This document shows, piece by piece, positions 4,515-17,998 of a DNA stretch of 18,695 nt. The translations under genes and the position numbers were made by a program. This DNA is from an uncultured archaeon (GTDB lineage Archaea; Iainarchaeota; Iainarchaeia; Iainarchaeales; 0-14-0-20-30-16): NCBI GenBank assembly GCA_964595665.1, contig CAZQQS010000010.1:1-18695 (forward strand), read 5' to 3'. The notes under the pieces are model-generated. The model did no database searches. It had not been told where the DNA came from and was given only the letters and a program-made list of their open reading frames with translations. The stretch's first letter is position 1. Each line of letters starts with the position of its first letter.

Positions 4515-4994
4515 ATGAAATATTTATTTTCTATAGGGTTAATTATAGGATTATTTTCAATAATATTATTATCTGGTTGTGTATCTGAAAACAAACAACA
4601 AGATTTAACAGATAATAATTGGATGAATAATGGAGAAACATTTGAAGACGAAATTGCAGAAGATGCTTACAATAATGCAGAAGAATTAATGAATACTGTT
4701 GAAACTGCAGAAGTAAAAGACAATGAAATAAAACATTGTGTTTGCCATTTAAGCGAAATACAATATGATTATTGGATAGCAAAAAATGAATTAGCAAGAG
4801 AAACTACTTTTGGAGGCAAAGTAAAACAAAGTATAAATAAAATAGAAAATTGTGCAATACAAGAAGGTATTCCTAAACAATGTATGCCATTAGATTTTGA
4901 TTTTGAACAAATGAAAAATGAATGGCTTAAAGAAACTGAAGCTATGAAATGTAATTGCGATATTATAGAATACGATTCAAAATATTTTAATTAG
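4515..4994 (+). CDS. Cys-rich secreted/lipobox protein (159 aa), hypothetical
   Basis: Signal peptide MKYLFSIGLIIGLFSIILLSGC with lipobox-like LSGC. Strong SD GGTGAT at 4506-4511. Mature part is acidic with paired Cys (HCVCH, CAIQEGIPKQC, CNCD). 43 nt downstream of the membrane protein gene. Confidence 0.75.
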   Translation: MKYLFSIGLIIGLFSIILLSGCVSENKQQDLTDNNWMNNGETFEDEIAEDAYNNAEELMNTVETAEVKDNEIKHCVCHLSEIQYDYWIAKNELARETTFGGKVKQSINKIENCAIQEGIPKQCMPLDFDFEQMKNEWLKETEAMKCNCDIIEYDSKYFN

Positions 4995-5018
4995 AGATAT
5001 TCTCTAATTTCTTTTTTT
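4991..5018 (+). terminator. Hairpin + T-run terminator
   Basis: TTAGAGA(4991-4997)-TAT-TCTCTAA(5001-5007) followed by TTTCTTTTTTT. The stem includes the TAG stop codon. Confidence 0.5.
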
Positions 5019-5043
5019 ATTTTTTAAAATATAAAACCTACAA

Positions 5044-5093
5044 TTAAAATGAGCCTAAGAAAGGCACACGAAGTGGGACTTCTTTGGTACTTA
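5044..5093 (-). repeat. Copy 1 of a conserved 50-nt GC-rich hairpin element (candidate small structured RNA or cis element) downstream of tRNA-Arg(GCG)
   Basis: Minus-strand reading is TAAGTACCAAAGAAGTCCCACTTCGTGTGCCTTTCTTAGGCTCATTTTAA. It matches 17718..17767 (+) at 41/50 positions. It is an isolated GC-rich island in AT-rich intergenic DNA and starts 33 nt after the tRNA 3' end. Confidence 0.55.
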
Positions 5094-5126
5094 CTAAAAT
5101 TTTGATTTTGAAAAAAAATTTTGGTA

Positions 5127-5199
5127 TGACCCTACGGAGATTTGAACTCCGGTCACAAGCTCCGCAAGCTCGCATTCTATCCAACTAAACTATAGGGCC
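5127..5199 (-). tRNA. tRNA-Arg (anticodon GCG)
   Basis: Reverse complement is GGCCCTATAGTTTAGTTGGATAGAATGCGAGCTTGCGGAGCTTGTGACCGGAGTTCAAATCTCCGTAGGGTCA. Acceptor GGCCCTA/TAGGGTC, anticodon stem CGAGC/GCTTG with loop TTGCGGA, T arm CGGAG-TTCAAAT-CTCCG. Confidence 0.9.
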
Positions 5200-5245: not shown

Positions 5246-5884
5246 TTATTTTTTAATAAAAGAATAGGCTAAAAAACCATATTTCTGAGGTTTAAACAAG
5301 ACTTTACAAATATAGCCTTTAGACTCAAAAAACGCTATTTGATCAGTTAATTTATCTGGAAAATTGGATTTATTCTCCAACAATAATTGAGAAATCAATT
5401 CTTTGGGTAATTTGTTTTTTAGTAAAAAAGATTTCCAATTAGCTCTATAAGTTTGTTCTTCAATTTTAGTTTCTCCCAAAATTCTATCAAAAATAATTAT
5501 AGTTTTTATTTTTGCATTACAAAGTTTATTAAAAAGAGAATGTCTTTTTGTTTTTGGCAATAAATGAAATAATAATGAACTTATTACAACATCGTTTTTA
5601 GTAAACTTTGTTTTTAAAACATCTTGACAAACATATGAAATTAAATTATTCTTCAATTTGTTTTTACAAATATTTAATTGATATTTATCTTTATCTACAA
5701 TAGTTAATTTTAAATTTTGTTTATTTGAAATTAGATTCTTAGTTAAATTCCCAGTACCACAACCCAATTCAGTTAATTTAACATTATTATTAACCTTCTT
5801 TGAAATTAAATATAATACTTTATTATAATTTGGACAAATTTTCTTAATATATTTATCGTAATCTCTGTACCAATCAAACTTCAT
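5246..5884 (-). CDS. Class I SAM-dependent methyltransferase (212 aa)
   Basis: Motif I LTELGCGTGNLTKNL, post-I acidic residue (IVDKD), motif II-like CQDV, motif III-like VVISSLLFHLL. Starts 9 nt after the radical SAM gene on the same strand. Confidence 0.8.
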   Translation of the reverse strand: MKFDWYRDYDKYIKKICPNYNKVLYLISKKVNNNVKLTELGCGTGNLTKNLISNKQNLKLTIVDKDKYQLNICKNKLKNNLISYVCQDVLKTKFTKNDVVISSLLFHLLPKTKRHSLFNKLCNAKIKTIIIFDRILGETKIEEQTYRANWKSFLLKNKLPKELISQLLLENKSNFPDKLTDQIAFFESKGYICKVLFKPQKYGFLAYSFIKK

Positions 5885-5893
5885 AATAAAACC

Positions 5894-7132
5894 TTAAAAT
5901 TTAATCACTGATTTTAACTGATTTTTGTGTCTTCTTATTATTTCTGATTTTAATTTTTTAGCATATTTAACATCACAATTTGGATGATTTGCACAACCCT
6001 CATCAAAAAACAACCAAATTTTTTCAGAACCATATTTTTTAGACTCATAATCTAAATTTGGATTACTATTCGGATATTCTGCTAAAATACTATAGGAAAC
6101 AAATTCGGGCATTATTTTTTCAATATAATCTAAGGTTTTTTTTGCCCAATAAAAGTCTTTTTTACAATCTTCAAAGATCCCAAACATCACATACAATCCT
6201 ATTTTCATATTATTCTTTCGAGCAACTTCGCACTTATGCTTTACAACTTTTGGATCTAGAGGTTTATTTATTTTTTTTAATGCTTCTTTAGAAACATTTT
6301 CTAAAGAATATGTTATATATGTACATCCTGCTTTTGACATTAATTTAATTATCTCGTCTGAAAGAGATTCAACAGCAGTTGTTTGACAACCCCATTCTAA
6401 TTTTTTATTTATTCCTTTTTTAATAATTTCATTTAACAATTCTTTTGTTCTTTTAGAATTTGCAACAAAATTAACATCATTGAAAAATACAGCATTATAA
6501 TTCATTTTAATTATCTTTTCTAATTGCTCAATTACAATTTTAATAGGTAAAGGATTATAATTACCGCTAGGACAAAAACTGCAACAAAAATTGCATCCTC
6601 GCGCAGTCATATATTGCAACATTTTCTTTTTTGGAAAAATGTGGTTATCAAATCTATAACTACTTTGAGTCATATCTAATAAATCATATGCTGGGAAAAG
6701 AGTTTCCCAATCTATTTTTTTATTTTTATTGTTAGTTATTATTTCTAAAAATTTTTGTTCTGCAAATTTATCTCTAACAATATAATCAATCCAAGGATAT
6801 TTTATTTTAGTTATATTTCCTCGGTATATTTCATGTGGCCCACCAATAATTATTTTTAAATTATGATATTTATCATGTACTTTTTTTAATAATTTAATTG
6901 TTTCAATATTATTTGGAGTATATCTAGACATTCCTAAAAAATTAGGATTAAATAATTTAATTGTTTTAAATAATTCTTTTTCTTTTACCAAATTTAAATC
7001 AATTATTTTAACTTCTGCATCTTTTTCTATTGCTGCTGCCAAATAAGCTAAATTCAAGGGAGTTTGACCATTAATTTGTCTACGAAAAAAAGGGTTTACC
7101 AATAATACTTTAGGTTTTTTGGTTTTAAACAT
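5894..7132 (-). CDS. B12-binding-domain radical SAM protein (412 aa)
   Basis: N-terminal Rossmann-like B12-binding-type region (KVLLVNP...LAYLAAAIEKDAEVKIIDLN...FLGMS...IIIGGPH). Radical SAM cluster motif ARGCNFCCSFC reads as CxxxCxxC. TIM-barrel-like remainder. Confidence 0.8.
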   Translation of the reverse strand: MFKTKKPKVLLVNPFFRRQINGQTPLNLAYLAAAIEKDAEVKIIDLNLVKEKELFKTIKLFNPNFLGMSRYTPNNIETIKLLKKVHDKYHNLKIIIGGPHEIYRGNITKIKYPWIDYIVRDKFAEQKFLEIITNNKNKKIDWETLFPAYDLLDMTQSSYRFDNHIFPKKKMLQYMTARGCNFCCSFCPSGNYNPLPIKIVIEQLEKIIKMNYNAVFFNDVNFVANSKRTKELLNEIIKKGINKKLEWGCQTTAVESLSDEIIKLMSKAGCTYITYSLENVSKEALKKINKPLDPKVVKHKCEVARKNNMKIGLYVMFGIFEDCKKDFYWAKKTLDYIEKIMPEFVSYSILAEYPNSNPNLDYESKKYGSEKIWLFFDEGCANHPNCDVKYAKKLKSEIIRRHKNQLKSVIKF

Positions 7133-7229
7133 ACTATAAAATAGTTAGATGAATATATAAACTTAATTAAAATAAAAAATAAAAAAAGAGAAAAGAATAG
7201 AAGCTATGAGCTCCTATTTATTAAAGCTT

Positions 7230-11550: not shown

Positions 11551-14500
11551 CTAATCTTCTTTATCTAAGGAATAATAGGTTTCTTTTGGGATTTCTTTCT
11601 TTGGGGTGTATTTCTTACCAAAGAAATATACTAAAAATGCTAGGAGAATAATAAAACCTATTCCAATGTAAAGCGAGTAATCTTTATTGCTTGAACCTAA
11701 AATAGCCAAACCTGAGAAATAAATTGAATCTACATATGAATTCAAATCATAATAATCTCTTGCTTGCAAATAATCTCTCTCATTTTTTAAATTTGCTTTT
11801 GCATAAACTAATTTGTTTTTTGCAGTATCTTGTAATTCTGCTTCTATTGTTTTAATATTTTTCTCTAAAATATCAAAATCATAAAAGAATTCTAAAAATG
11901 TTTTTTCAGAAATATTGTTTTCTTTGAGTAATAAATCTAAATTCAAAGTTTGTTTGGTTAGTTTAGATATATTTGTTTTTAAAGATTCCAAATCTTTTTG
12001 AGAAAAATTAAAACTTATCTTTAAATCTTTTAAAGATGAAAATCTAGATGAATTAATTTGAGAATCTAAACTTAATACTCTAGTCCATAAAAAATCCAAA
12101 TCTGATTTATATTTCTTATACTCTAAAATCAAATCTTTTTGAGAATTACTTTTTTCAGTTTTTTTAACATCTAAAATACTATTTAAAACTAATAATTCTT
12201 TTGAATACTCTGAAACATATTGCAAAGCATTTTCGTAAAAATAAGTTTTTAAAGAGCTATTAAATAAACTACTTATTCGCAAAATATTTGATTCATCTAA
12301 AACCAAAGAATATTCTTTAAAAGATTTTTTTAATTCATTAAATTCTTTTGTTTTATTGTTAAATATTGATAAAATAATTTCTTCAATTTCTTTATTTTTA
12401 AATTCAAAATTATCTAAAATCTTTAATGATTCTTTTATTTTTCCTAAAGCATATAATTCGTCAGATTGTTTAATTATTGAATCAATGTCTGCAAAATTTG
12501 GCAAATCATTTAAATAAATATTATAATCCGAAGATAAAATATCTTTGGCAGAATTAAATTGTTCTTTGTAATTTAACATCAATTGAATCTTATCTTTTCT
12601 TTGTAATTCATATAATGAATTTGTTATAGATTCTGAAAGTAAAACATCAATTTTGGATTTTAATGAAACTATGCCTTTTGCCAAAGTTAAACTATCTTTT
12701 GAATTTTTTAAAGAATCTAATAGCTTTTTTAATTCAAATATTTTTTCATTAGAAACCCAAGGTAATTTTTCTAAATTTAATATGTCCTTTTCTAATGCCT
12801 CGATTTCAGAATTAAATTCTAAAGAGTCTTTTGTAATAATCATTGTAATTGTTTTTGATTCTAAAGGCAATAAATCTATATTAAAATAAATCTTATCTGC
12901 TTTAGTACCATATTCTAAATTCTCTTTAAAAGAAATTTTATTTAGAAGAACATCATTAATATTAGGTATGAAAATCTCTAAATTATCTAAAGACATTTCT
13001 AAATTGTTACCCACATATATTTCATAAATCAAATTATTTCCAGAAATATTAATTAATTTATATTTTAAATTTATTGAGTTATCTAAAATAAATGTTACAT
13101 CTAAACAAACTTTTTTATTAGTTATCGAATTAAAATAAATTTTTAGATCTTGGTCAATTTTTGAATTTAATATAACTCCATTTAAGGAAACACTATGAGA
13201 TAAAATTGAATCCTTGTCAAAACCTAAATTTATTACCTCGTAAATCTTGGAATTTATTAAACAAACTTCTTGAACCAAATTCAATTTATTTGAATTCAAT
13301 TCTAAAGATTTGGTTTTTATGGATTGGATAAAATTTTGTTTTACATCTAATTTAAAAATATCTTTTAAACAAGTAAATTTGATTATCTGAGAATCTAAAT
13401 TAAAACTAGCTATACAATCGCCAGAAACTGTAGAAAATAATAAATCATTAAATTTAATTTCGTAATTTAATTCTAAATCCCCCAAATAAGGATATAGTTC
13501 TAATTTTAATTCGTTTAATTCATAAATGCTATTAAAATAACAATTCAAATTGTTTTGTAAATCTTTCTTAATAGCTTCTTTTAACAAATTTAATTTTGAA
13601 GAGTAATCTAAAACATTTTGAGATACTAAAAATATATTTGTGATTTTATCATCAGAATATTTTGTCTTACCAAATAAAGAATTATACTCTAAAAGATATG
13701 AATAATATTTCTCATACGAAATACAAGAACTATTTTGATATAAATTCTCGTATGCAAAATAAAGCTCATCTAAAAGCTTAACTTCTTGTTTAAAATTTTG
13801 ATATTGAATAGAAGTATTTAATTTAAATATATAAGTATTTAATTGAGACTCACAGTCTTCTAAATTATATTCCAAACCTAAAAAATTTGATAAATTCTTT
13901 AAATAATAAGTACAATTTTCTTTTGAATTATCTTTTAATTCAAAATAGTTATTGCAATACAATAATTTTTCTCTATCTATTGCTGATTTGAAAAACAAAT
14001 TTAAATAATTTTCCAATAATGGTTTATTGGCATTTGATTCTAAATAACTAAAACTTTGTTTTTCTAAAGTTAAATCTGCTGTGCAAAGCGTAATTAAAGA
14101 TTTCAAATCAGCTTCTTCAAACACCAACAATTCGGATTCGAGTTCATTTATCTTCTGTTCCAAAGTATTTAATTTAGAATATTTCTCGCCTAAGCTAAGT
14201 TTTGGGAAATTTACTAATTCTAACTTAGAGTTTGTAATTAATTTTGACAATTCATTTGGAGACTTAACCAAGTTATATTTATTATAAAGCAAAGTAAATT
14301 CATCTTTGTTAATTATTTTTGAATTTAATTGTAATTCAAAAACATTTAATTTTTTTTCCAAAGCTGATTTTCGCTTTAATACATCTTGCTCTAAATTAGT
14401 CAATTCCAAATCTATATCCTTTACCAAATCAAAATATGCTTTGGGAGAATAAGAATTTTTGCCAAAGGATTTTTCAAAATCTTGTAAAAAAACTCTAAAA

Positions 14501-15450
14501 AATCTTAAATTGTCCCATTCAGATAAATTACTTTTTGATATAGCCAATTTAAAATAATCTGACAAAGTATTTGCAATACTTTTAGTTAAAATAAAACTTG
14601 CAACTAATCCGGCAGTAGAAATGCTTTTCATACCAAAATAAGCTATACTTCCAGTTGCAAATATCGAAGAGGCCCAACCAAAAACATTACTTTCAAAACT
14701 TATATCTGTGTTTAAAGTTGTTAATGCAGTTTGCAATTCTATTTTAGATTCTTCTGTAGAATAATTTTTTATATAAAAATCTATGGAGGATTTTGCCAAA
14801 GATTCTTTTACATCTATATCTTTTCCAGTAGATTTTATGAATTCATTAATAACGTTATTTAATTCAATATATTGCAAATATACTTTTGAATCTTGCATTA
14901 ATAAAACATTTTTATCCAATAAATCTTTCTTTATTGAAAACAAAGACGCAATAAAACTAAACATAAATTCATTTGTATGATAATCCAGACGTTTTGTGTT
15001 ATCCAACAATTCTTCTTTATATTCCAAATAATCTGTATCAAAAAAACTATCACATATTGAATTTATTTGAATAAAATTATAGGCTATTTTATCACTATAC
15101 TTCCAAGACTCAATTAAATTATATCTATAATTATTTATTAAATTCTGAGATTCAATACTTAAATTATTAAAGATTATATTTGGGGAAATATTGCTATTAA
15201 ATGATTTTTCACAATCTTTATTAGTTACCCCATTAGAATAAGATGAACAAATGGGATAATTATTTAATGGGTTACTAATTTCTTTGCATAATTTTTTTGC
15301 ATCCGTATAAGATACACAATCTGAATCTTCATCATTAACACAAAAAGTAACGCAACCTGAAAAAAACACCATTAAAAGCAAGCTAAAAAATAATACAAAA
15401 ATAGGAATATTTTTATTAATACTCTTACTATAATTATATTTAGAGGACAT
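11551..15450 (-). CDS. Giant (1299 aa) surface protein: lipobox signal peptide, Cys-rich head, hydrophobic hairpin, long coiled-coil/beta-rich ectodomain, C-terminal TM anchor
   Basis: Uninterrupted 3.9-kb ORF. N-terminus IPIFVLFFSLLLMVFFSGC has lipobox-like FSGC with Cys at aa 33, followed by 6 further Cys within about 50 aa. Internal hydrophobic stretch FGWASSIFATGSIAYFGMKSISTAGLVASFIL. Asn/Leu/Lys/Ser/Glu-rich heptad-like regions. C-terminal YSLYIGIGFIILLAFLVYFFGKKY plus a short charged tail. Confidence 0.85.
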   Translation of the reverse strand: MSSKYNYSKSINKNIPIFVLFFSLLLMVFFSGCVTFCVNDEDSDCVSYTDAKKLCKEISNPLNNYPICSSYSNGVTNKDCEKSFNSNISPNIIFNNLSIESQNLINNYRYNLIESWKYSDKIAYNFIQINSICDSFFDTDYLEYKEELLDNTKRLDYHTNEFMFSFIASLFSIKKDLLDKNVLLMQDSKVYLQYIELNNVINEFIKSTGKDIDVKESLAKSSIDFYIKNYSTEESKIELQTALTTLNTDISFESNVFGWASSIFATGSIAYFGMKSISTAGLVASFILTKSIANTLSDYFKLAISKSNLSEWDNLRFFRVFLQDFEKSFGKNSYSPKAYFDLVKDIDLELTNLEQDVLKRKSALEKKLNVFELQLNSKIINKDEFTLLYNKYNLVKSPNELSKLITNSKLELVNFPKLSLGEKYSKLNTLEQKINELESELLVFEEADLKSLITLCTADLTLEKQSFSYLESNANKPLLENYLNLFFKSAIDREKLLYCNNYFELKDNSKENCTYYLKNLSNFLGLEYNLEDCESQLNTYIFKLNTSIQYQNFKQEVKLLDELYFAYENLYQNSSCISYEKYYSYLLEYNSLFGKTKYSDDKITNIFLVSQNVLDYSSKLNLLKEAIKKDLQNNLNCYFNSIYELNELKLELYPYLGDLELNYEIKFNDLLFSTVSGDCIASFNLDSQIIKFTCLKDIFKLDVKQNFIQSIKTKSLELNSNKLNLVQEVCLINSKIYEVINLGFDKDSILSHSVSLNGVILNSKIDQDLKIYFNSITNKKVCLDVTFILDNSINLKYKLINISGNNLIYEIYVGNNLEMSLDNLEIFIPNINDVLLNKISFKENLEYGTKADKIYFNIDLLPLESKTITMIITKDSLEFNSEIEALEKDILNLEKLPWVSNEKIFELKKLLDSLKNSKDSLTLAKGIVSLKSKIDVLLSESITNSLYELQRKDKIQLMLNYKEQFNSAKDILSSDYNIYLNDLPNFADIDSIIKQSDELYALGKIKESLKILDNFEFKNKEIEEIILSIFNNKTKEFNELKKSFKEYSLVLDESNILRISSLFNSSLKTYFYENALQYVSEYSKELLVLNSILDVKKTEKSNSQKDLILEYKKYKSDLDFLWTRVLSLDSQINSSRFSSLKDLKISFNFSQKDLESLKTNISKLTKQTLNLDLLLKENNISEKTFLEFFYDFDILEKNIKTIEAELQDTAKNKLVYAKANLKNERDYLQARDYYDLNSYVDSIYFSGLAILGSSNKDYSLYIGIGFIILLAFLVYFFGKKYTPKKEIPKETYYSLDKED

Positions 15451-16527: not shown

Positions 16528-16686
16528 ATGACATTTGAAGAAGCAAATAATAGATTATTAAAAGATGTATGGATATGCATGAGCTGTGGAGCAAAACAAA
16601 GAGGTTCAAAAGCCAAAGCACCTAGCAAATGTAATAAATGTAGTAGATCTGAATTCAGAATAAAACATAAACAAAAGAAGAAGTAA
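16528..16686 (+). CDS. rpl40e: 50S ribosomal protein L40e (52 aa; not in the ORF track)
   Basis: MTFEEANNRLLKDVWICMSCGAKQRGSKAKAPSKCNKCSRSEFRIKHKQKKK* has the CxxC...CxxC zinc ribbon and the ICM.CGA motif typical of archaeal L40e. AAGGG lies 8 nt upstream. It starts 22 nt after tRNA-Val. Confidence 0.8.
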   Translation: MTFEEANNRLLKDVWICMSCGAKQRGSKAKAPSKCNKCSRSEFRIKHKQKKK

Positions 16687-16775: not shown

Positions 16776-17445
16776 TTGTATTCTATTGCAAATAAATATG
16801 ATATTCAAAATAAAGCTAGTTTAAAAAAATATGATTTAGATATTAAATTTTTTGAAAACATAAAGATTAAAAAGATTAAACCAAAAACCGTACTTGATTT
16901 AGGGTGTGGAACAGGAAATCTAAACTCAATAGCAATAACAACCTTTCCAAGCATAAATAAAATTATAGGTATTGACAACTCTAAAGAAGAAATAAAGATT
17001 GCTAAAAAAAAATAATCTTAGTGAAAAAATTAATTTTTTTGTTAGGGATATGAATAAAACACAATTACCTAAAAATTATTTTGATTTAATATATAGTAGA
17101 CTTGCAATACACTACTCTAAAAACTTAAATGAAACATTCAAAGAATTAAATAGAATAACTAAATCCAAAGGTTGGATATATTTCCAGGATGCGCACCCAA
17201 TATATTCTTTATTTTTAAAAAAATCTAAAGATTATGAAAAAAAAGAAAATGTAGAATTTTTAATTCAAGGTGGAGATTTAAAAGTTGTTCACCCAACATT
17301 CACTTTAGAGGAATACATTAACGCAATAATAAATAATGGTTGGAAAATAGAATTGTTTAGAGAAATTTATGGACCTAGGAGTAATAGTATAAAAAACTAT
17401 AGATTGCCAGCTACGTTTATTATGTTGTTAAGAAAAACAAATTAA
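16776..17445 (+). pseudogene. Class I SAM-dependent methyltransferase interrupted by a frameshift in an A9 homopolymer
   Basis: ORF 16776..17015 carries motif I (VLDLGCGTGNL) and IGIDNS. ORF 16999..17445, in the +1 frame, carries the rest (INFFVRDM, DLIYSRLAIHY, KSKGWIYFQD). They join seamlessly if the run A(17004-17012) is one base shorter (..EEIKIAKKNNLSEKINFF..). The first ORF has only a TTG start. Confidence 0.7.
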
Positions 17446-17612: not shown

Positions 17613-17686
17613 GGCCTCATAGCCTAGTTGGATAAGGCGTCAGCCTTCTAAGCTGAAGATCGTGGGTTCGAGTCCCACTGGGGTCA
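17613..17686 (+). tRNA. tRNA-Arg (anticodon TCT)
   Basis: Acceptor GGCCTCA/TGGGGTC, D arm GCCT-AGTTGGATA-AGGC, anticodon stem TCAGC/GCTGA with loop CTTCTAA, T arm GTGGG-TTCGAGT-CCCAC, discriminator A. TATA-like TTTATAAA at 17575-17582. Confidence 0.9.
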
Positions 17687-17717
17687 TATTTAATTTTCTC
17701 ATTCTTCTAAAAATAAA

Positions 17718-17767
17718 TAAGTTCCTAAGAAGTCCCCTCTCCGGCGCCTTTCTTAGGCTAATTTTAA
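17718..17767 (+). repeat. Copy 2 of the conserved 50-nt GC-rich hairpin element downstream of tRNA-Arg(TCT)
   Basis: TAAGTTCCTAAGAAGTCCCCTCTCCGGCGCCTTTCTTAGGCTAATTTTAA. CCTAAGAA (17724-17731) pairs perfectly with TTCTTAGG (17750-17757). It starts 31 nt after the tRNA 3' end and matches the minus-strand reading of 5044..5093 at 41/50 positions. Confidence 0.55.
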
Positions 17768-17998
17768 CTTATAATTATAGCCTTCTAAAAAATAATTTTT
17801 TATTTATAAATTAATTCAAAACTTAATTATCAATATTTTTTTAAAAAAACTAACTACATTATTTTATATTCTGTTTGTACTTTTTTAATTAAAACCAAAT
17901 AAAAATATTGAGCGTAAGCTCTACTTTTTTCTTAGAAAAAATTTTTTAAAATTTTTTTAATTCATGACATAAGTCTGTTAATTTTGTGGGGTGATTTT

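Follow-up and report, generated by a model that had tools for sequence, protein, structure and literature searches.

Bacterial repetitive extragenic palindromes, described as REP, BIME and REPIN elements, are mobilised by RAYT transposases, and the REPs of E. coli act as hairpins at transcript 3' ends. In yeast mitochondria, mobile GC-rich hairpins of 30-50 nt, the GC clusters, are scattered in an AT-rich compact genome; they are often found at gene 3' ends, fall into subfamilies, are gained and lost between strains, and leave short characteristic flanking repeats. MITEs (miniature inverted-repeat transposable elements) have been reported in some DPANN genomes (PMC11602168). In the present work, we describe a GC-rich hairpin element that occurs twice in an 18,695-nt stretch of DNA of an uncultured iainarchaeal organism (the entire contig CAZQQS010000010.1 of assembly GCA_964595665.1; hereafter, the window), once behind each of two tRNA-Arg genes. 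The two copies, E1 and E2, belong to a family present in multiple genomes, with a conserved strand-asymmetric hairpin that lies in gene 3' spacers, is single or tandem, and is present or absent at orthologous sites. We favor, with moderate confidence, the interpretation that E1 and E2 are copies of a lineage-restricted dispersed hairpin repeat of a REP- or MITE-like kind that is not specific to tRNA-Arg. The family is short (38-40 nt) and, judging by the sequences collected here, appears to be limited to a Diapherotrites/Iainarchaeota-like group of DPANN archaea; no description of the element was found in the literature.

Comparison with described systems

Comparison of the element with REP, BIME and REPIN sequences revealed several common features: (i) REPs are imperfect palindromes of 20-40 nt, extragenic and close to gene 3' ends, and the element measures 38-40 nt, (ii) the G+C content is above that of the surroundings, (iii) copies are single or clustered and form lineage-specific variants, (iv) the conserved stems contain mismatches or bulges and end in a variable tip, and (v) copies within a genome are more similar than positional orthologues. 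Unlike REPs, the element is found in an archaeal (DPANN) host and has target duplications of 13-30 nt, which REPs lack, and neither RAYT nor an IS200/IS605 TnpA was seen in the loci examined. A GTAG or CGTC tag defines the REP classes (PMC3733652); the element has no such foot tag and ends in TACC...GGCA, TTCC...GGCT or GTCATC...GATGCA. An array of five copies on contig L006 (see below) is direct, with all copies on the plus strand, whereas REP clusters alternate in orientation.

With MITEs, the element shares a non-autonomous nature, an intergenic location, flanking direct repeats, polymorphic presence and absence among relatives, and terminal inverted repeats that fold to a hairpin, the 9-bp lower stem forming the ends of the unit. 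It differs from MITEs in length, 38-40 nt (about 70-90 nt with the tails of E1 and E2) versus the usual 50-500 bp, and its flanking repeats, 13, 17 and 24-30 nt long and perhaps 13 nt at E2, are unlike a short fixed target-site duplication. We know of no parent insertion sequence with ends matching the element. By analogy, the element may be comparable to the palindromes of the mitochondrial GC clusters, which belong to a different domain of life and have no sequence relation to it. The element is not a member of the REP/BIME, MITE or mitochondrial GC-cluster families.

The attC sites of integrons are a further structural counterpart. They are likewise imperfect palindromes directly 3' of a gene in which structure is conserved above sequence: the outer stems are conserved, the central spacer is unpaired and the terminal structure varies. 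In contrast to attC sites, the element lacks the R''/R' core (RYYYAAC / GTTRRRY) and ends in CCWAAG...CTTAGG, is 38-40 nt rather than 57-141 nt long, and is hosted by syntenic core genes and tRNAs rather than by cassette arrays, with no IntI.

The pair of elements in the window

The features of the two loci are listed below; R1 and R2 denote the two covariance models that were used.
5127..5199, minus strand: tRNA-Arg(GCG), with E1 in its 3' flank (ARAGORN, Rfam)
5044..5105, minus strand: homology block of E1 reaching beyond the hairpin, with the 5' flank ending in TTTTAGTAAGT and the 3' flank CTCATTTTAA (repeat I1, alignment A1)
5044-5093, minus strand: E1 as a 50-mer
5052..5089, minus strand: hairpin core of E1 (TACCAAAGAAGTCCCACTTCGTGTGCCTTTCTTAGGCT), 55.9 bits (R1) and 51.7 bits (R2)
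17613..17686, plus strand: tRNA-Arg(TCT), with E2 in its 3' flank (ARAGORN, Rfam)
17706..17767, plus strand: partner homology block of E2 (repeat I1, alignment A1)
17718-17767, plus strand: E2 as a 50-mer
17722..17759, plus strand: hairpin core of E2 (TTCCTAAGAAGTCCCCTCTCCGGCGCCTTTCTTAGGCT), 52.0 bits (R1) and 49.6 bits (R2)

The first-pass annotation, made from the letters of the window, had pointed out both 50-mers, and its description of the pair holds: the quoted sequences are those found at these positions, a direct count gives 41 identical positions of 50, each copy has the orientation of its own tRNA-Arg gene and starts 33 nt (E1) or 31 nt (E2) after it (tRNA 3' ends at 5127 and 17686 in the Rfam coordinates), and the tRNA-Asn and tRNA-Val genes of the window have no element. 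Both copies are GC-rich islands in a window with a G+C content of 25.6%. The motif AAGAAGTCCC-N9-GCCTTTCTTAGGCT has two matches in the window, compared with none in 200 shuffles. The homology between E1 and E2 reaches 62 nt at 77% identity and was reported by the repeat finder as inverted repeat I1; the flanks common to E1 and E2 are not present at E3, the copy on contig L001 described below. Neither solo arms of the element elsewhere in the window nor, using the covariance model with filters off, a third copy in the window were found.

Distribution of the family

The relatives, coded L001, L005, L006 and so on, are contigs of related metagenome-assembled genomes (MAGs) or metagenomes, with one contig read per genome. 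E3, the third window-type copy, is located on L001 approximately 32 nt past the stop codon of ogg (N-glycosylase) rather than behind a tRNA gene; it is 87% identical to E1 and 79% identical to E2 (100% and 94%, respectively, in the lower stem). A sequence-only nhmmer profile built on three copies identified the L022 copy alone (E=8e-4) and missed the copy of L020 and all six copies of L006, which were recovered by the covariance model. Model R1, built on the five-sequence alignment A3, and model R2, both run over 287 kb, gave 12 matches, 11 of them distinct, as L021 is a near-identical contig that duplicates L020. The distinct members are two in the window, one each in L001, L020/L021 and L022, and six in L006, and R2 found none beyond those of R1 in the 287 kb and none in L023 or L024. 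The window has 2 copies in 18.7 kb and L006 has 6 in 16.3 kb, the latter distributed as follows.
L006:11322-11360: single copy directly 3' of dnaG (R1)
L006:8-268, plus strand for all five: array of five tandem copies abutting tRNA-Leu(CAA) (R1)

The last copy of the array shares 4 nt with the 3' end of tRNA-Leu(CAA), which lies on the other strand. The array copies are 10-20 nt apart and include an exact 47-nt tandem duplication, which argues against separate genes. The array (L006:1-268) begins at the contig edge and also contains two unrelated small hairpins, GTCTAAATT...AATTTAGAC and ATGTGC..GCACAT. A contig edge is also found on L001 (1-31): this 1.2-kb contig ends 27 nt after E3 in ACCAAAGGGG, matching the first 7 nt of the element (ACCAAAG), and this end may be the start of a second copy that caused the assembly break. 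L025 has a weak candidate member (12418-12457, minus strand; 20.4 bits, E=0.005) in the divergent spacer that separates a PvlArgDC gene from ndk; should it be real, the family would also include GCA_053535935.1 and a 5'-side context.

All copies are intergenic and start 8-37 nt past a stop codon or tRNA 3' end, and their orientation is that of the upstream gene in all four loci where this can be judged. The association with ogg is found in three lineages (L001, L020/L021 and L022); the Ogg proteins of L020/L021 and L022 are 76% and 79% identical to that of L001, and a diverged hairpin lies at the same place between homologous flanks. The ogg 3' site is empty in L015 and L016, with Ogg 90% and 80% identical to that of L001, respectively. 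No member was found after the orthologous tRNA-Arg(TCT) or tRNA-Arg(GCG) genes in L005, L006, L023, L024 and L025, and the family is absent both from L005, the closest relative by ribosomal protein S3Ae, and from L023, with DnaG 83% identical to that of the window in the aligned part. The proposal that the element is specifically coupled to tRNA-Arg is therefore not supported: members follow ogg and dnaG or adjoin tRNA-Leu, and orthologous tRNA-Arg genes lack them.

The sequences of the copies do not track their loci. Between E3 and its positional orthologues (L020 and L022), identity reaches only 60-70%, whereas the L020 ogg hairpin is 82% identical to the dnaG copy L006:11322, and the L022 hairpin is 82% identical to L006:230, the copy adjoining tRNA-Leu. 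Hence the copies cluster by subfamily rather than by locus, which indicates copy turnover or homogenization rather than simple vertical descent at a fixed site.

Conserved fold

The lower stem of the consensus fold is 9 bp long and contains one A.A or U-A position and a closing G.U. A small internal loop, in which a GCC is conserved, separates it from an upper stem of 5 bp that is capped by a loop of 3-5 nt. In E1, the lower stem is CC.AAGAAG / TTTCTT.GG, the internal loop TC/CC, the upper stem CCAC / GTG(T)G and the loop TTC, and E2 has the same architecture with a T-A pair at position 3 of the lower stem. In the five-sequence alignment A3, which was not fitted to a model, the loop is 3-4 nt long and 85.7% of the cells are paired, compared with 21-53% when the partners are slid, with double compensatory changes at 5 of 14 pairs. 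The alignment of all 11 members (A4), which was fitted to the covariance model, has 87.7% of cells paired (29-51% in the slid controls), double compensatory changes at 8 of 14 pairs, and a covariation score of 0.54 against 0.18 in shuffles, a value reached in none of 500 shuffles. The family is strand-asymmetric: E2 scores 49.6 bits on the forward strand and 8.7 bits on the reverse strand (R2), and G.U/U.G outnumber A.C/C.A combinations in the stems by 8 to 3. Within the internal loop, neither the unpaired AAG(C)T of the 5' side nor the GCC of the 3' side varies.

The compensatory changes across the 11 members bear out the conserved stem-loop proposed for the pair, and some of its details require adjustment. 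The 8-bp pairing of the arms exists and is in fact 9 bp long with the closing G.U; the A.A mismatch noted in E1 is real and occurs in two of the three window-type copies. Of the 9 nt described as a hypervariable loop, 7-8 nt do vary (approximately 45% G+C), and most of this segment forms the upper stem; when the copies are aligned from both sides, GTCCC and GYGCC are conserved, and thus only 7-8 nt are truly variable. The trailing ATTTTAA is present in E1 and E2 and absent from the other members. The alternative local hairpin GCCT-TTCTT-AGGC is not retained in the family, as seen from the right arms CCATTTAGAGGC and CCATATTGATGC.

Flanking duplications and insertion sites

Local alignment showed that several copies are bracketed by direct repeats duplicating the 3' end of the upstream gene.
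L006, dnaG: GATGTTTACGAGTATGATGCGTAA and GACGTCTATGAATATGATGCATAA, 24 nt scored and 30 nt by eye, p=0.004
L001, ogg: AAGTTATAAAATAAATT and AAGTTATAAAGTGAATT, 17 nt, p=0.002
L020: two identical copies of 13 nt, p<0.002
Window, E2: CTTCTAAAAATAA at 17704..17716 (plus strand) and CTTCTAAAAAATAA at 17782..17795 (plus strand), 13 or 14 nt, p about 0.04

The empty ogg sites of L015 and L016 carry a single copy of the repeat. At E2, the reported alignment (score 20) is a match to the tRNA, AGCCTTCTAA, and the direct repeat scores equally by hand count; the downstream copy of this repeat overlaps the 10 nt at 17780-17789 (AGCCTTCTAA) that match the anticodon arm of tRNA-Arg(TCT). The E2 repeat is a possible target duplication, although its sequence is of low complexity. 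In L006 (11285-11386), the last 10 dnaG codons (GIDVYEYDA*) are present both before and after the hairpin, and the second copy begins on a microhomology with the hairpin 3' end (AGGCATA). The DnaG ends of L023, L024 and the window did not distinguish the native copy from the other.

A different arrangement was observed in L023 (3246-3449) and L025 (5325-5498, minus strand). In both, two or three strong hairpins make up an insert of 95-110 nt behind tRNA-Arg(GCG), and after the insert the last 21 nt (L023) or 19 nt (L025) of the tRNA recur as an exact relic (p<0.003); in L025, the discriminator base is G in the tRNA gene and A in the relic. The hairpins within these inserts are not family members by R2. 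By its sequence, this arrangement has the signature of integration into a tRNA 3' end, with no integrase nearby. The inserts indicate that insertion 3' of tRNA-Arg(GCG) has recurred in this clade, which may explain the copy located there. No significant tRNA 3'-end relic was found within 300 nt downstream of either tRNA-Arg gene of the window.

These duplications resemble those left by archaeal elements targeting tRNA att sites: the tRNA-Arg(GCG) 3' end is duplicated 95-110 nt downstream in L023 and L025, and in L006, L001 and L020 a second copy of a protein-coding gene's 3' end lies behind the hairpin. They differ from att duplications in that only 48-110 nt separate the duplicated ends, no integrase is present, several different targets are used, and the window tRNA-Arg loci lack a tRNA relic.

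Origin of the element

If E1 and E2 are copies of a dispersed palindromic repeat, copies would spread or be replaced through insertion or recombination into 3' spacers. The hairpin and the unpaired AAG(C)T and GCC might be kept because the propagation machinery requires them; alternatively, the hairpin could be tolerated, or useful, at the end of the upstream transcript. The simplest explanation for a copy behind each of the two tRNA-Arg genes is a single insertion, after which a block of 60-90 nt was copied from one 3' flank to the other, or else a preference for tRNA 3' flanks; E1 and E2 share flanks that E3 lacks. An arginine-specific function is not required.

Several observations weigh against this interpretation. 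No transposase, integrase or RAYT-like gene was found in the window or in approximately 320 kb of fetched loci, and no Y1 transposase in any fetched locus. The exact window-type pattern has no match in 185,579 species-representative genomes and a single match, E3 in L001, in JGI metagenomes, and thus the window-type subfamily is rare in public data. The flanking duplications vary from 13 to 30 nt, unlike those of REPs (none) and of classical MITEs (short and fixed), and the low-complexity flanks of E1 show no significant duplication (p=0.2). The two copies of the L006 dnaG end differ at seven positions, all of them synonymous third positions, which argues for recombination with foreign DNA and is unexpected of a decaying target-site duplication. 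By sequence, this locus looks more like a foreign allele joined at the hairpin than like such a decaying duplication, and the intact reading frame of its second copy would not be expected of a neutral relic. Finally, the invariant unpaired residues, the sense orientation and the G.U excess fit a selected RNA function equally well.

Such a function is the most serious competitor of the repeat interpretation, and we consider it possible, although not probable: the element would act in cis as an RNA hairpin of the upstream gene's 3' untranslated region or trailer, capping the transcript against 3'-5' exonucleases, signalling a pause or termination, or binding a protein for processing, and would have been repeatedly recruited because it is functional, which is compatible with an origin as a repeat. 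This explanation accounts well for the start of copies 8-37 nt past a stop codon or tRNA 3' end, the sense orientation in four of four judgeable loci, the strand-specific covariation with its model asymmetry (49.6 versus 8.7 bits), the preference for G.U/U.G, the invariant unpaired AAG(C)T and GCC, which suggest sequence-specific recognition, and the persistence of the ogg hairpin and its flanks in three lineages with Ogg only 76-79% identical. It is at odds with the T-runs: no consistent U-tract follows the hairpin, as four Ts at +3 are found in E1 and E2 only, the next T-run is 30-39 nt away in L020 and L006b, and the 31-nt flank of L001 contains none; at E1 and behind ogg, the hairpin comes after a T-run (T8 or TTTATTTT) at which archaeal RNA polymerase should already stop, leaving the hairpin untranscribed. 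Moreover, most genes of the window and the same genes of close relatives lack the element, and a function exerted gene by gene explains neither the five-copy array nor sequences that are independent of locus. The duplications themselves suggest a recombination site or scar, that is, an end or recombinase-binding site of integrative DNA entering gene (especially tRNA) 3' ends, an attL/attR remnant or a microhomology breakpoint. The relics behind tRNA-Arg(GCG) in L023 and L025, the duplicated dnaG end of L006 with its synonymous differences and its junction on AGGCATA, the adjacency of three of five independent loci to tRNA 3' ends, and a radical-SAM/methyltransferase gene pair (nearest named homologue labelled Patescibacteria) between dnaG and tRNA-Arg(GCG) in the window are all consistent with it. 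We nevertheless regard a scar as improbable: a site-specific integrase has one target, and the family sits at dnaG, ogg, tRNA-Leu and tRNA-Arg; the window tRNA-Arg loci lack a significant relic; the insert hairpins of L023 and L025 lie outside the family; no locus contains an integrase; and compensatory evolution of the hairpin is unexpected of a dead scar. A bolder proposal combines mobility with recognition of the fold: the hairpin could serve as the active site for a mobile or recombination system of archaea that is new to the literature. The element of approximately 40 nt would insert, or capture foreign DNA, precisely at gene 3' ends and would leave long duplications in which the final codons or the end of the tRNA are kept, and a putative enzyme would recognise it through its AAG(C)T / GCC internal loop. 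We consider this speculative and rather unlikely.

The remaining explanations treat the element as an RNA of its own or as a piece of one. An independent small noncoding RNA gene, or a small RNA released from the tRNA-Arg 3' trailer, with the variable segment used for recognition, would be in keeping with a GC-rich island in a 25.6% G+C genome and with the conserved fold, and would be new, as Rfam gives no match. We judge it very unlikely, and the least likely of the functions that the first-pass annotation had listed: there is no promoter-like box at a fixed upstream distance, the copies of the L006 array are only 10-20 nt apart, a T8 terminator separates E1 from its tRNA, the variable segment is internally paired rather than free, the complementarity of the variable cores to tRNAs is no better than that of shuffled sequences with no target elsewhere in the window, and orthologous sites do not conserve the element. 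A tRNA-derived fragment (a split or permuted half, a piece of a pseudo-tRNA, or a mimic of the tRNA-Arg(UCU) anticodon arm, GCC-UUUCUUA-GGC) is suggested by the 9-mer AGTCCCACT common to E1 and the T-arm of tRNA-Arg(TCT) and by a right arm that can be drawn as a 7-nt loop showing UCU. The 9-mer has p about 0.017 before correction for 24 comparisons and is not significant after it; ARAGORN and Rfam see no tRNA-like unit, the window holds no complementary partner half, and the UCU-like loop is not kept in the family. The family alignment effectively refutes this origin, to which we assign a negligible probability.

DPANN archaea have tiny streamlined genomes, and their noncoding DNA is little known. 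If the element is a repeat, it would be among the few REP-like families described outside Bacteria, would serve as a marker of genome plasticity, with apparent entry of foreign DNA at hot spots next to tRNA-Arg, tRNA-Leu, dnaG and ogg, and would be a practical source of contig breaks in MAGs. If it is instead a selected RNA hairpin, it would bear on hairpin-assisted 3'-end formation in some archaea. Either way, a false lead is removed, as the element is not a tRNA-Arg-specific RNA.

Excluded identities

Search of the whole window against Rfam 15 at E<=1 gave the four tRNAs and chance matches only, and search of the two trailer segments of approximately 125 nt at E<=10 gave nothing meaningful overlapping the hairpin, in agreement with the absence of a known RNA family stated in the first-pass annotation; C/D and H/ACA boxes, also stated to be lacking, are absent in all 11 members. 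A guide sRNA of either class was further rejected because the 16-18 nt inside the lower stem are too short for a pocket and an upper stem, and a guide or antisense RNA because the cores form no better duplexes with the four tRNAs, by energy, than shuffled sequences do and have no target in the window, both strands of which were searched. An intrinsic terminator was rejected on the placement of TTTT, which is found at +3 in E1 and E2 only and is lacking within 27 nt in L020 and L006b and before +27 in L022; the terminator scan flags neither E1 nor E2. E1 and E2 are not the terminal inverted repeats of a 12.6-kb mobile element, since the interval between them holds syntenic core genes (S3Ae, S15 and DnaG) shared with relatives that lack the element. 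The defining residues of K-turn, bulge-helix-bulge, SECIS-like and attC-like motifs are absent from the consensus as inspected by eye. A small open reading frame (ORF) was also discarded, as the frame is not conserved, with a core of 10 nt in E3 against 9 nt. In viral contigs, the exact pattern has no match apart from one chance match within a giant-virus gene, and phage BLAST gave only chance 26-nt matches.

Genomic setting

The window genes are archaeal, including ribosomal proteins S3Ae and S15/S13N, UPF0147, DnaG primase and a class II aminoacyl-tRNA synthetase. By S3Ae, the nearest species representatives are the uncultured archaeon of L005 (64%) and Ca. Diapherotrites archaeon CG08 of L006 (59%). 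Orthologues of tRNA-Arg(GCG) are located downstream of dnaG in L006, L023 and L024, and an orthologue of tRNA-Arg(TCT) without an element downstream is found in L005. Both tRNA-Arg genes are thus ancestral at their syntenic positions, and the element, absent at the tRNA-Arg orthologues in L005 and L006, is a lineage-specific gain there.

Between dnaG and tRNA-Arg(GCG), the window (5246-7132, minus strand) carries a B12-binding radical-SAM gene and a class I methyltransferase gene; in L023 and L024, tRNA-Arg(GCG) follows dnaG directly with no intervening gene. The only homologues of this pair are 46-48% identical and lie on contigs that keep the pair, one of them labelled Patescibacteria. The pair may have been horizontally acquired at a tRNA-Arg hot spot. 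Upstream of tRNA-Arg(TCT), a methyltransferase gene (16776-17445, plus strand) is split into the overlapping ORFs 16776-17015 and 16999-17445, and is either a frameshifted pseudogene or an assembly error.

A 1299-aa ORF (11551-15450, minus strand) has no match in Pfam or NCBIfam, and seven other ORFs of the window (81-255 aa) have no Pfam match and no meaningful NCBIfam match. Just 3' of tRNA-Val, a 52-aa zinc-ribbon ORF (16528-16686, plus strand) has a sub-threshold similarity to ribosomal protein L40e (NCBIfam E=4e-7, 29 bits, with a cut-off of 54).

Several sites combine an AT-rich hairpin with a T-run, a bacterial-looking intrinsic-terminator shape in an archaeal host. In the window, the hairpin TTAGAGATATTCTCTAA followed by the T-run TTTCTTTTTTT is located at 4995-5030 (plus strand), directly after ORF 4515-4994, and the hairpin AATAGGAGCTCATAGCTTCTATT followed by the T-run CTTTTCTCTT at 7196-7218 (minus strand), directly after dnaG. 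In L005, ACTCTATTTAATAGAGTTTT is likewise found downstream of tRNA-Arg(TCT).

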